The notes under the pieces: model-generated
Databases searched by the model: none
What the model saw: the letters and a program-made list of their open reading frames with translations, nothing else
What the model was told of the DNA's origin: nothing
Made by a program: the position numbers and the translations under genes
Part shown: positions 3,025 through 46,145 of the stretch, one piece after another
Layout: each line of letters begins with the position of its first letter
Position numbering within the stretch: the first letter of the stretch is position 1
NCBI GenBank assembly: GCA_020852375.1
Contig: JADZAY010000009.1
Coordinates: 12,690-76,689 of the forward strand
Reading direction: 5' to 3'
DNA from: Candidatus Yanofskybacteria bacterium
GTDB lineage: Bacteria; Patescibacteriota; Minisyncoccia; 2-02-FULL-40-12; GWA2-44-9
Length of the DNA stretch: 64,000 bases

Positions 3025-3192
3025 AATGATCTTCGGAATGCCGTTTGGCATTGTGAAGATCATCCGCAAGAGATGTGGGGGATTCGAAGGGCGGACCGCT
3101 GCGACATCAGCTGATGTCGCCGGGAGCCCGTGCCCAGGCCGAGGCGAGCGACGGCGAGCCGAGAGCCGAGGGAGAATCCTCCCGCCTCCGCA
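3025..3192 (+). repeat. tRNA-3'-linked structured repeat (hairpin + GC-rich core + 19-bp copy of tRNA-Ser 3' end)
   Basis: Hairpin 3029-3062; core GGGGGATTCGAAGGGCGG..CGACATCAGCTGATGTCGCC..GGCCGAGGCGAGCGACGGCGAGCCGAGAG. GAATCCTCCCGCCTCCGCA at 3174-3192 is an exact copy of tRNA 3006-3024. Confidence 0.6.
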
Positions 3193-5383: not shown

Positions 5384-5557
5384 GCTCTGTGGACCTACGG
5401 GGAGTCGGCCTCGCCTCTCGGCGCGCCGCCGCGCACCTCGGGCTGGCCACCGCCTCACGGTGCCGCCGACTGGCGGCACATCGCTCCGGCGTTCGTCTCC
5501 CCGTATATATTCGCTGTAGCAATACGGACAACCCTTGAGGGTTGTCCGTATTGCTCT
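5384..5557 (-). repeat. tRNA-3'-linked structured repeat (24-bp copy of tRNA-Ala 3' end + core + hairpin)
   Basis: GCTCTGTGGACCTACGGGGAGTCG at 5384-5407 duplicates 5553-5576. Minus-strand core ACGGGGAGACGAACGCCGGAGCGATGTGCCGCC..GAGGCGGTGGCCAGCCCGAGGTGCGCGGCGGCGCGCCGAGAGGCGAGGCC. Hairpin 5519-5554. Confidence 0.6.
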
Positions 5558-40416: not shown

Positions 40417-40424
40417 ATATTGGT

Positions 40425-40555
40425 GGCCCGCTGTAGGGTTTGAAGCCCGGAGCGATGTGGCGGCAGCGGCCGACACCGCGAGGGCCGGAGCCCGGAGGCG
40501 GACGGCTCAGACCGGGGGCCGTTCGACCGGAGGGTGAATCCTACAGGGCGGACCA
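40425..40555 (+). repeat. tRNA-3'-linked structured repeat (core + 19-bp copy of tRNA-Lys 3' end)
   Basis: CTGTAGGGTTTGAAGCCCGGAGCGATGTGGCGGCAGC..GAGGGCCGGAGCCCGGAGG..GACCGGAGGGT, then GAATCCTACAGGGCGGACC 40536-40554, which equals 40357-40375. Followed by hairpin 40560-40590. Confidence 0.6.
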
Positions 40556-40597
40556 CATAAACCAAAACACCCCGCGAGGGGTGTTTTGGTTGAGGCC

Positions 40598-42322: not shown

Positions 42323-42405
42323 CACTTGGCCACTCCTTATTCTGCATGTATGAAGGAAGTGGCTGGCCAAGTGTCCTGAGCGCATAGGCGCGAAGGACTA
42401 CAGTG
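42323..42405 (+). promoter_or_regulatory. conserved hairpin + -10 module (copy 1 of 3) upstream of tRNA-Val(GAC)
   Basis: CACTTGGCCACTCCTTATTCTGCATGTATGAAGGAAGTGGCTGGCCAAGTG hairpin, then TCCTGAGCGCATAGG..., then TACAGT 11 nt before the tRNA. Confidence 0.4.
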
Positions 42406-42496: not shown

Positions 42497-42871
42497 TTAG
42501 TTTTTTAGTCTCTTCCCCCGATAGTGAGCCGCTTCGGCGAGGAATCGTTCGTCATCTTTTGTGCTATGCCTGACGGCGTGGCAATTCGCACAGAGAAGAG
42601 TGCATTTCAGGATCTCTGCCCGGATGCTCTCCCAGCTCTTGTTCGCGACATTACCGAGAGTGAAGTCTTTCTTTTGTGGATCAAGATGATGGAATTGAAG
42701 GGCGGCCTGATGGCCCCTCCAGCCACAATCCACGCACTTTCCGCCGAGGATGCGTATGGCAGCCGCCTTGGTTCGATAGCGCCGGATCTTGGTGTTGCAG
42801 GCCCCGCATCTGGCGCGCATTTTCCCCTGGTAATCGTTGTACTCTTTGCCGCATAGTTTACAGATCGTCAT
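42497..42871 (-). CDS. HNH endonuclease (free-standing, zinc-ribbon N-terminus)
   Basis: CKLCGKEY..CGAC N-terminus. HNH core CVDCGWRGHQAALQFHHLDP...LLCANCHAVRH. Paralogous in architecture to the HNH gene at 2384-2755. Confidence 0.75.
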   Translation of the reverse strand: MTICKLCGKEYNDYQGKMRARCGACNTKIRRYRTKAAAIRILGGKCVDCGWRGHQAALQFHHLDPQKKDFTLGNVANKSWESIRAEILKCTLLCANCHAVRHSTKDDERFLAEAAHYRGKRLKN

Positions 42872-42945: not shown

Positions 42946-43223
42946 GCCGCGGTAGCTCAGTGGTAGAGCGCAGCCCTAAATCTTTGGGGCTTTCCGCAGG
43001 AATGCGGATTGAGAAATCGGGTGAATTCGGGGGAACTCCGGAACGGTCTGGACAATCCCGAGCCGAGCTCCGTGGGGTATCCAAAACGGAGAAGGTGTAG
43101 AGACTAGCGGGTGAGCCCAACAATACTCCCGCACAAGCGCCCGACCTCCAGAACGGAGGATGATATAGTCCAATTCAGCTTCGGAAGAGGCTGGCGTCGG
43201 GGGTTCAATTCCCTCCCGCGGCA
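42946..43223 (+). tRNA. intron-containing tRNA, most likely tRNA-Phe (anticodon GAA); exons 42946-42977 and 43184-43223
   Basis: 5' exon GCCGCGGTAGCTCAGTGGTAGAGCGCAGCCCT and 3' exon GAAGAGGCTGGCGTCGGGGGTTCAATTCCCTCCCGCGGCA together give a 72-nt cloverleaf with anticodon loop ctGAAga. Identity rests on the splice-junction assignment, including an unusual G37. Confidence 0.7.
42978..43183 (+). ncRNA. group I self-splicing intron (Azoarcus-type) in tRNA anticodon loop
   Basis: 206 nt. Internal guide GGGGCT (42986-42991) pairs with exon end AGCCCU with a U.G pair at the splice site. P2 hairpin CCGCAGGAATGCGG. Core GAAGGTGTAGAGACTAGCGGGTGAGCCC closely resembles the Azoarcus tRNA-Ile intron P7 region, with ATATAGTCC as the P7 3' strand. 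The intron ends in G. Confidence 0.75.
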
Positions 43224-43224
43224 C

Positions 43225-43267
43225 AAAGTAAACTAAAACCGCCCCTCAGGGCGGTTTTAGTTTACTT
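43225..43267. terminator. perfect 20-bp hairpin after tRNA-Phe
   Basis: AAAGTAAACTAAAACCGCCC-ctca-GGGCGGTTTTAGTTTACTTT. Confidence 0.5.
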
Positions 43268-43411
43268 TCCTGCTCGCGGCCGGGAATTGAAGGGCATCGA
43301 GCCGAGCGAACTGCTTCGCTCGGTGAGAGCCCGGGCTCCGGGGGAGCATCGAAGCGTCCGCCGAAGGCGGCTGCGAAGATGCGGAGGAGGAGAATTCCCT
43401 CCCGCGGCACA
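43268..43411 (+). repeat. tRNA-3'-linked structured repeat, unit 1 of tandem pair (divergent core + 19-bp copy of tRNA-Phe 3' end)
   Basis: AATTCCCTCCCGCGGCACA at 43393-43411 equals tRNA 43207-43225. 5' flank GCGGCCGGGAATTGAAGGGC is roughly complementary to the T-arm. Followed by hairpin 43414-43449. Confidence 0.55.
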
Positions 43412-43452: not shown

Positions 43453-43588
43453 ACGTATCGTGGCGGGAGGGAATTGAACGCCGGAGCGATGCGGTATCAG
43501 CTGATATCGCCGCGAGGCGGTGGCCAGCCCGAGCGTCGCGACGGCGCCGCGAGAGGCGAGGCCAATGACTGACCCCTCCCGCGGCACC
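43453..43588 (+). repeat. tRNA-3'-linked structured repeat, unit 2 of tandem pair (canonical core)
   Basis: CGTGGCGGGAGGGAATTGAACGCCGGAGCGATGCGGTATCAGCTGATATCGCCGCGAGGCGGTGGCCAGCCCGAGCGTCGCGACGGCGCCGCGAGAGGCGAGGCC, then CCCTCCCGCGGCAC (a partial copy of the tRNA 3' end). Followed by hairpin 43595-43623. Confidence 0.6.
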
Positions 43589-45221: not shown

Positions 45222-45330
45222 TGGCGGAATTATTGTAACTCTCCGCGCCTGCCTGCCGGTAGGCAGGCCCATGCGCTCGGGGCACTTGGCCAGCCACCCC
45301 CTTCATACATGCAGGATAAGGAATGGCTAA
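45222..45330 (-). promoter_or_regulatory. conserved hairpin + TACAAT module (copy 2 of 3) upstream of the NUDIX gene
   Basis: Minus-strand reading: CACTTAGCCATTCCTTATCCTGCATGTATGAAGGGGGTGGCTGGCCAAGTG hairpin, then CCCCGAGCGCATGGG.., GCCTGCC-hairpin, then GAGAGT-TACAAT-AATTCC. ATG 40 nt downstream. Confidence 0.4.
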
Positions 45331-45332
45331 GT

Positions 45333-45455
45333 GTGGGCGGTAGAGGACTCGGCTTTGTCTCTCGCGTCGCCGTTGCGACGCTCGGATTAGCCACCGCCTC
45401 GCGGCGCCACCTACTGGCGGCGCATCGCTCCGGCGTTCGAGCCTCTACCATTCGC
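45333..45455 (-). repeat. tRNA-3'-linked structured repeat (core + 19-bp copy of tRNA-Val(TAC) 3' end)
   Basis: Minus-strand reading: GGTAGAGGCTCGAACGCCGGAGCGATGCGCCGCCAGTAGGTGGCGCCGCGAGGCGGTGGCTAATCCGAGCGTCGCAACGGCGACGCGAGAGACAAAGCCGAGTCCTCTACCGCCCACAC. The 19-bp copy at 45333-45351 equals 45502-45520. Hairpin 45457-45500 separates it from the tRNA. Confidence 0.6.
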
Positions 45456-45502
45456 TAACTGTATCAAATACAACATGCCAAATGGCATCTTGTATTTGAT
45501 AG

Positions 45503-45576: not shown

Positions 45577-45660
45577 GAATTATTGTAGCCCCGCGAACCC
45601 ATGTTCTCGGGACACTTCGCCAGCCAACTCCTTCATACATACAGAATAAGGAGTGGCGAA
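45577..45660 (-). promoter_or_regulatory. conserved hairpin + TACAAT module (copy 3 of 3) upstream of tRNA-Val(TAC)
   Basis: Minus-strand reading: CACTTCGCCACTCCTTATTCTGTATGTATGAAGGAGTTGGCTGGCGAAGTG hairpin, TCCCGAGAACATGGG.., then GGGGC-TACAAT-AATTCC directly abutting the tRNA 5' end. Confidence 0.45.
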
Positions 45661-45790
45661 GTGTGGGGGGAGCCTGGATTCACCCTCCGGTCAGGCCTGC
45701 GCCGTCGCTTGGCCTGCCTTCGGGCTCCGGCCCTCACGGTCGCGCCTGCTGGCGCGACATCGCTCCGGGCTTCGAATCCTATCACTCCAA
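45661..45790 (-). repeat. tRNA-3'-linked structured repeat (Lys-type core + diverged copy of tRNA-Ile 3' end)
   Basis: Minus-strand reading: GATAGGATTCGAAGCCCGGAGCGATGTCGCGCCAGCAGGCGCGACCGTGAGGGCCGGAGCCCGAAGG..GACCGGAGGGTGAATCCAGGCTCCCCCCACAC. Hairpin 45791-45836 separates it from tRNA-Ile. Confidence 0.55.
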
Positions 45791-45838
45791 CTACTACTTG
45801 AAACCGACCCGCCGCAGGGGCGGCTCGATTTCAAGATG

Positions 45839-45912
45839 TGGGGGAGCTAGGATTCGAACCTAGGACCACCAAGGTATAAGCTTGGCGCTCTAACCAGCTG
45901 AGCTACTCCCCC
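45839..45912 (-). tRNA. tRNA-Ile (anticodon TAT)
   Basis: Reverse complement folds as GGGGGAG-UA-GCUC..CCAAG-CUUAUAC-CUUGG..CUCCCCC-A. The loop CUUAUAC gives anticodon UAU, which is unusual. Confidence 0.7.
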
Positions 45913-46145
45913 TGAATCAATTGTAGTTTGTACGCTTTTCCCTGACGTTTGATCTGCTGCTCTCGCTTGGTTGCCGAACCGCGATCCGGATGTCGCTCAG
46001 TATACAGCAGGGTGAACGGGCCGCGCCCTCGGGTGTACTTTGCCCCCGTACCCGCTCGATGCTGTGCGATGCGCGCGGCGATGTCGGTCGTGATCCCGGT
46101 GTACAGCGTACCATCACCGCACTTCAGGATGTAGACGACGTACAT
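45903..46145 (-). CDS. GIY-YIG nuclease family protein (free-standing, 80 aa)
   Basis: MYVVYILKCGDGTLYTGITTDIAARIAQH...E (GIY-YIG core with Arg and Glu). The last 10 nt overlap the 5' end of tRNA-Ile. Confidence 0.7.
   Translation of the reverse strand: MYVVYILKCGDGTLYTGITTDIAARIAQHRAGTGAKYTRGRGPFTLLYTERHPDRGSATKREQQIKRQGKAYKLQLIQGE

Follow-up and report, generated by a model that had tools for sequence, protein, structure and literature searches.

The 64,000 nt of Candidatus Yanofskybacteria DNA analyzed here (the window) raise a question with several layers: where is the tRNA-Phe gene, what interrupts it, and does the endonuclease gene beside it have anything to do with the interruption? 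Run with default settings, ARAGORN finds 15 tRNAs across the 64-kb window and none at 42946-43223. Once intron detection is switched on, the call tRNA-Phe(gaa) i(33,206) appears at precisely these positions, with the same boundaries (32 + 206 + 40 nt) that the initial annotation had drawn, and the joined exons form the canonical 72-nt cloverleaf with anticodon GAA. ARAGORN found no second tRNA-Phe gene in the 64-kb window. The Rfam group I intron model (Intron_gpI, RF00028), named by the initial annotation as a check, matches 42968-43193 with 72.2 bits against a gathering score of 50 (E 2.2e-16); the match spans model positions 1-253, which is the full model, and is the sole intron match in the window. 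It is far beyond chance, and the feature is real. Our overall explanation, which we hold with considerable confidence, is that this tRNA-Phe(GAA) gene is split between U33 and G34 by an ORF-less 206-nt intron of the IA-type lineage, and that the HNH gene beside it most likely encodes a homing endonuclease. Coordinates are collected in Table 1.

Table 1. Features of the split tRNA-Phe gene, its intron and its surroundings; positions count from the first nucleotide of the window.
Feature	Position	Strand	Description
tRNA-Phe exon 1	42946..42977	+	32 nt: acceptor 5' strand, D arm, anticodon stem 5' strand, C32, U33 (ARAGORN -i)
Group I intron	42978..43183	+	206 nt, omega-G at 43183, Rfam RF00028
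tRNA-Phe exon 2	43184..43223	+	40 nt: G34 A35 A36 G37 A38, anticodon stem 3' strand, variable loop, T arm, acceptor 3' strand, A73
P1	42972..42991	+	exon AGCCCU (42972-77) with internal guide GGGGCU (42986-91), U.G at the 5' splice site
P10	42981-85 with 43184-88	+	guide UCUUU with exon 2 GAAGA, direct pairing
P2 hairpin	42994..43007	+	CCGC-AGGAAU-GCGG; 4/4 pairs with double-sided compensatory changes, 98.6% paired
P3	43017-23 with 43138-44	+	98.9% paired, compensatory changes; encloses P4, P5, P6/P6a, the P7 5' strand and P7.1
P4	43027-32 / 43056-61	+	100% paired
P5	43037-41 / 43048-52	+	helix model
P6/P6a	43062-64 / 43094-96; 43068-72 / 43087-91	+	P6a 99.5% paired, compensatory changes
P7 (guanosine-binding helix)	43100..43106 with 43166-43171	+	5' strand G43100, bulged A, GACUA; with UAGUCC; 6/6 pairs invariant in 38 distinct sequences
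P7.1-type hairpin	43107..43132	+	GCGGG-UGAGCCCAACAAUACU-CCCGC, 26 nt, between P7 and P3'; 5/5 pairs with compensatory changes
P8 hairpin	43145..43159	+	CCUCC-AGAAC-GGAGG; 5/5 pairs with compensatory changes
3'-tail hairpin	43176..43193	+	intron CAGCU with exon 2 anticodon-stem strand GGCUG; 3' splice site in the loop
Terminator-like hairpin	43225..43268	+	perfect 20-bp hairpin and T-rich tail (inverted repeat I12), directly 3' of tRNA-Phe
HNH endonuclease gene, free-standing	42497..42871	-	124 aa, divergent from tRNA-Phe, start 74 nt from the tRNA 5' end
GIY-YIG gene	45903-46145	-	PF01541
Trailing units after tRNA-Phe	43269-43411, 43456-43587	own strand of the tRNA	
Other trailing units	~3064-3191	+	
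Other trailing units	~5389-5503	-	
Other trailing units	~40419-40556	+	
Other trailing units	~45333-45461	-	
Other trailing units	~45676-45800	-	
Trailing units in other loci			L003, L017, L024, L064, L075, L127, L140, L158, L159, L176, L192, L198, L225

The spliced tRNA-Phe reads GCCGCGGUAGCUCAGUGGUAGAGCGCAGCCCUGAAGAGGCUGGCGUCGGGGGUUCAAUUCCCUCCCGCGGCA, and the CCA end is not encoded in exon 2. A73, U20, U59 and U60, the tRNA-Phe identity elements of E. coli, are all read in it. Among the matches listed, the closest relative of the intron is that of L072, a Paceibacterota MAG, and the spliced tRNA is identical at 72/72 positions in the window, L072 and L003, whose introns are only 85% and 81% identical to that of the window, respectively. 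A sigma-70 promoter scan around tRNA-Phe found nothing. The surrounding genes encode cellular proteins, namely ribosomal protein L19, FtsH, a NUDIX protein and a pseudouridine synthase of the RluA type. We also considered a phage origin of the window and rejected it, since BLAST against a phage collection matched tRNA segments only and the gene neighbours are those of a cell.

An explicit helix model of the intron was applied to a MAFFT alignment of 39 tRNA-Phe introns (the window and 38 homologous loci). With the model in register 87% of cells are paired, compared with 35-51% when the 3' partner is slid, double-sided changes are seen at 36 pairs, and 0/500 shuffles attain any of the observed measures. 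Compensatory changes are abundant in P2, P3, P6a, P7.1 and P8, and P7 is invariant. Because MAFFT misaligned the exon ends, P1 and P10 were tested on the raw sequences. Six exon-matched variants of P1 occur (GGACU/GGUCC, GCCU/GGGC, GCCCU/GGGGC, GGCU/GGCC, GACU/GGUC and GGAUU/GAUCC), each of which has U.G at the splice site, and the P10 guide, just 5' of the P1 guide, reads UUUUC if tRNA position 37 is A and UCUU(C/U) if it is G. The elements originally picked out in the intron (P1 AGCCCU/GGGGCU with its U.G, the P2 hairpin, the terminal G and the quoted core strings) are all there, and, as the initial annotation had also stated, the 206 nt hold no ORF of endonuclease size. The P9 hairpin has been lost in the clade of the window and is retained in most homologs. 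Rfam aligns the hairpin at 43176-43193 as P9, and this hairpin is retained in the 6 closest relatives listed, with GU or compensatory variants; it may perhaps substitute for the missing P9. The P7.1 loop contains AGCCCA, and we asked whether it imitates the 5' exon AGCCCU and could thereby form an alternative P1. This was rejected because the loop is kept in Asn and Phe introns with differing exons, and AGCCCA is probably a tertiary-contact motif.

Group I introns splice by attack of exogenous guanosine at the 5' splice site, followed by exon ligation. From this established chemistry and the conserved anatomy we infer the following course for the tRNA-Phe intron. P1 would form between the GGGGCU guide and the final six nucleotides of the exon, placing U33.G at the cleavage site, and exogenous guanosine held in P7 would attack the 5' splice site. 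The UCUUU guide would then pair with GAAGA of exon 2 as P10, the terminal G (43183) would replace the guanosine, and ligation of the exons would yield the 72-nt tRNA-Phe. With P9 lost in the clade, the 3' tail of the intron would take the freed anticodon-stem strand of exon 2 as its partner. It is very probable, given the anatomy, that the window copy self-splices. The opposite reading, in which the gene is a dead pseudogene that does not splice, could draw on the missing P9, but a pseudogene would hardly keep exons that are perfectly conserved with relatives and a catalytic core that is invariant or covarying. The window holds no other tRNA-Phe gene, and in a supplementary table of Nakagawa et al. 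(mSystems 2026, PMC13011429) Patescibacteria genomes typically have one. We regard a pseudogene as very improbable.

The insertion after U33 and the assignment to tRNA-Phe(GAA), both of which the initial annotation had proposed, agree with the ARAGORN -i call. Covariation of the P1 and P10 guides with the exons across the 38 homologous loci sets the junction at 33/34, with anticodon GAA; the predicted ligated junction is ...GCAGCCCU joined to GAAGAGGCUG (CCCU/GAAGA). In the homologs, ARAGORN -i set the intron at position 33, 34, 35 or 37 and twice gave anticodon AAA, and all of these cases resolve to U33/G34. Since the positions called by ARAGORN vary among homologs, the annotation of such genes in MAGs is unreliable. 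Might the true junction or anticodon differ from our call, for instance by 1-2 bases? Junction shifts of this kind turn Asn into Thr calls (PMC13011429), several homologs were called at the other positions or with AAA, and the intron end and the start of exon 2 are both G, which makes a one-base shift formally possible. Against this, only the 33/34 junction puts at -1 a U that makes U.G in P1, ends the intron in G and leaves P10 contiguous, which it does in 38/38 homologs and with covariation, and an anticodon AAA would still be Phe. We consider a shifted junction scarcely credible.

To which subgroup does the intron belong? It had been described as Azoarcus-like, which would make it an IC3 intron, the classical bacterial tRNA intron class. 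It resembles the tRNA-Ile(CAU) IC3 intron of Azoarcus sp. BH72 and the other classical bacterial introns (Leu 34/35, fMet 33/34, Arg 36/37) in being a small, ORF-less ribozyme (206 nt here) in the anticodon loop that uses the same chemistry; 33/34 is the tRNA-fMet site, and the J6/7-P7 sequence is similar. The J6/7-P7 string GAAGGUGUAGAGACUAG matches that of the Azoarcus intron, although GAAGGUGUAGAGACUAG is a generally conserved J6/7-P7 segment. What sets the window intron apart is the region that follows. In IC3 introns the 5' strand of P7 is joined directly to P3', with no hairpin between them, whereas here a covarying 26-nt hairpin (43107-43132) intervenes, with compensatory changes at all five of its pairs, and P9 is missing. 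Classical IA introns have P7.1 plus P7.2 between P7 and P3'. The window intron has one P7.1-type hairpin, and about 10 homologs have a two-hairpin version.

The published survey bears on the same point from both sides. IC introns are the majority class (81%) of bacterial tRNA introns, but nearly all Patescibacteria tRNA introns were assigned to IA and none to IC (PMC13011429). The IC3 tRNA introns in its supplement pass straight from P7 to P3', and the closest sequence relatives of the window intron are the Asn and Phe introns of its own phylum. An IC3 assignment is in our opinion improbable. The covarying hairpin at 43107-43132, together with this classification, argues for membership of the window intron in the IA-type tRNA intron lineage of the phylum, rather than a likeness to Azoarcus.

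The initial annotation also regarded tRNA-Phe as an uncommon host and position, and this does not survive comparison with the literature or with other genomes. Williams (2020, bioRxiv 10.1101/2020.01.27.920355) had earlier raised the number of tRNA intron settings on record from 4 to 21. Nakagawa et al. surveyed 95 complete Patescibacteria genomes and 4,934 bacterial genomes, note that 33/34 is the usual tRNA-fMet site, and list a Phe(GAA) 33/34 intron in Doudnabacteria GCA_016699995.1 (Table 1 and Table S3 of PMC13011429), with its sequence in the supplement. We scanned GTDB, taking one genome per species, for AGAGACTA lying 115-145 nt downstream of a tRNA D-arm string, and obtained at least 119 loci, of which at least about 40 were called tRNA-Phe(GAA) by ARAGORN -i. 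Once one-base G/G ambiguities are resolved, at least 38 loci share the same junction, with U33 before the intron, G at its end and GAA after it, and introns of 200-254 nt. By record name, the hosts are Paceibacterota, Saccharibacteria, Moranii-, Magasanik-, Uhr-, Peregrini-, Berkel-, Harrison-, Taylor- and Wildermuthbacteria, and others. Because at least 38 species-level loci have the same junction, this host and position is, judged from the sequences, common in Patescibacteria and not rare. The intron type is already published, the claim of novelty fails, and the window intron adds another member.

The Doudnabacteria Phe intron is close to that of the window in host tRNA, insertion site, phylum and P10 logic, in length (211 nt vs 206 nt) and in the core blocks AAAUCGGGUGAA, GACAAUCCCGAGCC, GGAAGGUGUAGAGACUAG, GGUGAGCCCAACAAUA (an unusual segment), AGCGCCCGAC and GAUGAUAUAGUCCAA. 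It differs in class (the window comes from Yanofskybacteria, Paceibacteria) and in its P1 guide, which is fitted to a different anticodon stem, and no adjacent HNH gene was reported for it in PMC13011429. The tRNA-Asn(GUU) introns of Patescibacteria, which are IA introns (PMC13011429), have the same core blocks and share the P7.1 hairpin loop GUGAGCCCAACAAUA (GUGAGYCCCAACAAUA) with the window intron; for one of them, from GCA_016700035.1, self-splicing in vitro was demonstrated in the same study. Unlike the window intron they sit in another tRNA, at 35/36, have a P9 hairpin, and in four cases contain an HNH gene inside the intron rather than beside the gene.

Typical Patescibacteria tRNA-Phe introns also turned up in MAGs labelled Bdellovibrionales or Gammaproteobacteria (L006, L021, L036, L046 and L079), and the intron of L006 equals that of the Parcubacteria MAG L035 in start, end and length. 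These sequences are more suggestive of wrongly binned or labelled MAGs than of a broader range of hosts. In a separate observation, the Harrisonbacteria locus L244 has two further AGAGACTA motifs, at ~695 (+) and ~3016 (-), near tRNA-Leu(taa) and tRNA-Arg(tct); these may mark additional intron-bearing tRNA genes in the same 4-kb stretch.

Free-standing HNH and GIY-YIG genes had been noted near the intron, and both are present, with linkage to the intron found for the HNH gene only. Homologs of the GIY-YIG gene occur in 5 of the 119 loci obtained, each time at a distance above 1 kb from the tRNA, and we rejected it as a partner endonuclease. The window HNH protein scores 18.2 bits on PF01844, below the 21.4 cutoff (E 0.0027), with profile positions 1-46 of 47 covered. 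The intron-encoded HNH of PMC13011429 scores a similar 19.5 bits, and several close homologs of the window protein carry a precomputed PF01844 match. In NCBI, a protein of a Candidatus Yanofskybacteria MAG that bears the name HNH endonuclease is 100% identical to the window HNH. An ORF inside the tRNA-Asn intron of GCA_023898525.1 is 47% identical to it (E 1e-20).

Searching the 119 loci obtained with tblastn, we found full-length HNH homologs (63-76% identity) in seven of them, L072, L075, L025, L076, L003, L028 and L034, each divergent from an intron-bearing tRNA-Phe gene and 80-105 nt upstream of it. Weaker homologs were found at most ~450 nt from intron-bearing tRNA-Asn, Thr or Glu genes. 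Neither the ~800 kb of fetched loci nor the 64-kb window gave any other HNH match, and the fetched loci also carry many intron-less tRNA genes (ARAGORN). A database search returned 241 clusters in the HNH family, and three members from long contigs (Jorgensenbacteria, Harrisonbacteria and another MAG) have the same arrangement. The HNH gene is next to an intron-bearing tRNA-Phe in all 11 sampled contexts (the window, the seven loci and the three long contigs). Conversely, HNH is present at only 5/36 Phe-intron loci with at least 500 nt of upstream sequence, all five of them in the G37 exon clade, and the intron therefore persists without HNH. The HNH orthologs are intact in 11/11 cases, with dN of 0.12-0.30 and dS saturated in all pairs, so that only a qualitative conclusion on dN/dS is possible. 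Loci L240-L244 are also listed with the HNH arrangement. In L240 the HNH and tRNA-Phe pair is inverted, compared with the window, relative to the tRNA-Val/Ile/FtsH block, and the two genes thus stay together through rearrangement.

Collaborative (trans) homing is known for cyanophage psbA/F-CphI and for the DNA polymerase of T7-like phages (Hausner et al. 2014, PMC3984707). Those systems likewise combine an ORF-less intron with a free-standing homing endonuclease gene (HEG) immediately beside the host gene, and HEG homologs inside related introns are there a proposed route to composite mobile introns (PMC3984707). The known cases are in phage protein-coding genes, unlike this chromosomal tRNA gene of a cellular organism. 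What we find in all 11 contexts is a free-standing putative HEG adjoining a gene with an ORF-less intron. As a free-standing homing endonuclease, the HNH protein would cut intron-less tRNA-Phe alleles (the GCAGCCCUGAAGAGGCUG region), which would mobilize or retain HNH and intron together, with the host copy protected by its intron. We see this homing role as evenly balanced. That intron and HNH form a collaborative-homing module in a cellular chromosome, spreading jointly among Patescibacteria, is a tentative proposal that the sequence data place a little short of such a balance.

Among the sampled loci we observed no HNH gene beside an intron-less tRNA-Phe allele and no HNH target site, and the strict linkage could for this reason also reflect a domesticated function. 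The intron would then be a fixed, vertically inherited passenger, and the HNH protein would be domesticated or unrelated to it, for example a nuclease linked to tRNA genes or a factor in expression or splicing. Such an account fits purifying selection on HNH over deep divergence, which is unusual for selfish HEGs, the majority of intron copies that lack HNH, the empty target site that was not seen, and the limited mobility that Nakagawa et al. inferred. Their survey scored only intron-encoded endonucleases, in introns of more than 500 bp; free-standing endonuclease genes are not mentioned in it and collaborative homing is not considered (PMC13011429). The account sits less easily with an HNH that has a homolog encoded within tRNA-Asn introns of this phylum and weaker homologs flanking other intron-bearing tRNAs (Asn, Thr, Glu), and that adjoins 0/15 of the intron-less tRNAs in the window, with no extra copy in the ~800 kb of loci, or with an intron scattered sporadically over many Patescibacteria classes. 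We view a passenger intron with an unconnected HNH as possible but rather doubtful.

A second kind of element lies downstream of the split gene. The 3' end string of tRNA-Phe, CCCTCCCGCGGCAC, recurs at 43397 and 43574, and two tandem copies of a structured unit follow the gene. Units of this kind, ~130-170 nt long, trail six tRNAs of the window, each on the strand of its tRNA: Ser-cga, Ala-ggc, Lys-ctt, Phe, Val-tac and Ile-tat. In a unit, a hairpin is followed by an arm complementary to the T-loop and the T-stem 3' strand of the tRNA and by a conserved core made up of two long hairpins. Then come 14-19 nt that repeat the tRNA 3' end, T-loop through discriminator, and frequently another terminator-like hairpin. 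Searched with a covariance model of the core, the window yields these seven copies and no others. The model also matches behind other tRNAs in Saccharibacteria, Moraniibacteriota and metagenome contigs; in 7/10 of the metagenome matches a detected tRNA on the same strand ends 50-75 nt upstream, and an eighth has the 3' end of an undetected tRNA there.

Across 21 copies, in an alignment that was itself fitted to the model, 90% of cells are paired and 28/30 pairs show double-sided change. About 40 G.A/A.G oppositions fall inside the modelled helices, and individual copies fold with z-scores of -3 to -4. G.U pairs outnumber A.C pairs 29 to 5 in the 21 copies, which identifies the tRNA-sense strand as the structured one. 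Behind tRNA-Phe, L072 has no unit, L003 has one and the window has two; since these close relatives differ in unit number, the units are gained or lost independently of the intron. We found no Rfam family for the trailing element, and a relaxed Rfam scan gave only sub-threshold matches on terminator hairpins. In 870 kb of viral contigs there were 0 model-confirmed matches, and we found no description of the element in the literature. We have considered a miniature integrative element with crossover in the T-loop, an sRNA with tRNA-type processing and a guide-RNA-like element. The window also contains a different repeat, a ~70-nt hairpin (ACTTGGCCACTCC...GGCTGGCCAAGTG) at 42324-42389 (+), 45267-45332 (-) and 45598-45670 (-), with copies 85-88% identical. 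It begins immediately behind the tRNA-Leu(gag) 3' end and, at the Val(tac) and Ile trailing units, immediately behind the 3'-end duplicate, and in two cases it precedes a tRNA-Val gene.

The correct annotation recovers a gene that standard tRNA finders miss and without which the genome would appear to lack tRNA-Phe. Its use is practical, in annotating Patescibacteria MAGs and judging their completeness, and existing knowledge of these introns is unchanged by it. The HNH linkage and the trailing element go beyond the original finding. Separately, the trailing element, with its duplicate of a tRNA 3' end, may represent a new family of RNAs or mobile elements. If the HNH gene does act in homing, the HNH inside tRNA-Asn introns and the free-standing HNH would capture both stages of the assembly of a mobile intron, and the inference that the tRNA introns of this phylum are largely immobile for want of internal endonuclease genes would be overturned. 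The pairing of HNH and tRNA-Phe intron, maintained by selection, offers a testable model for how ORF-less introns may be kept or spread in extremely reduced genomes.
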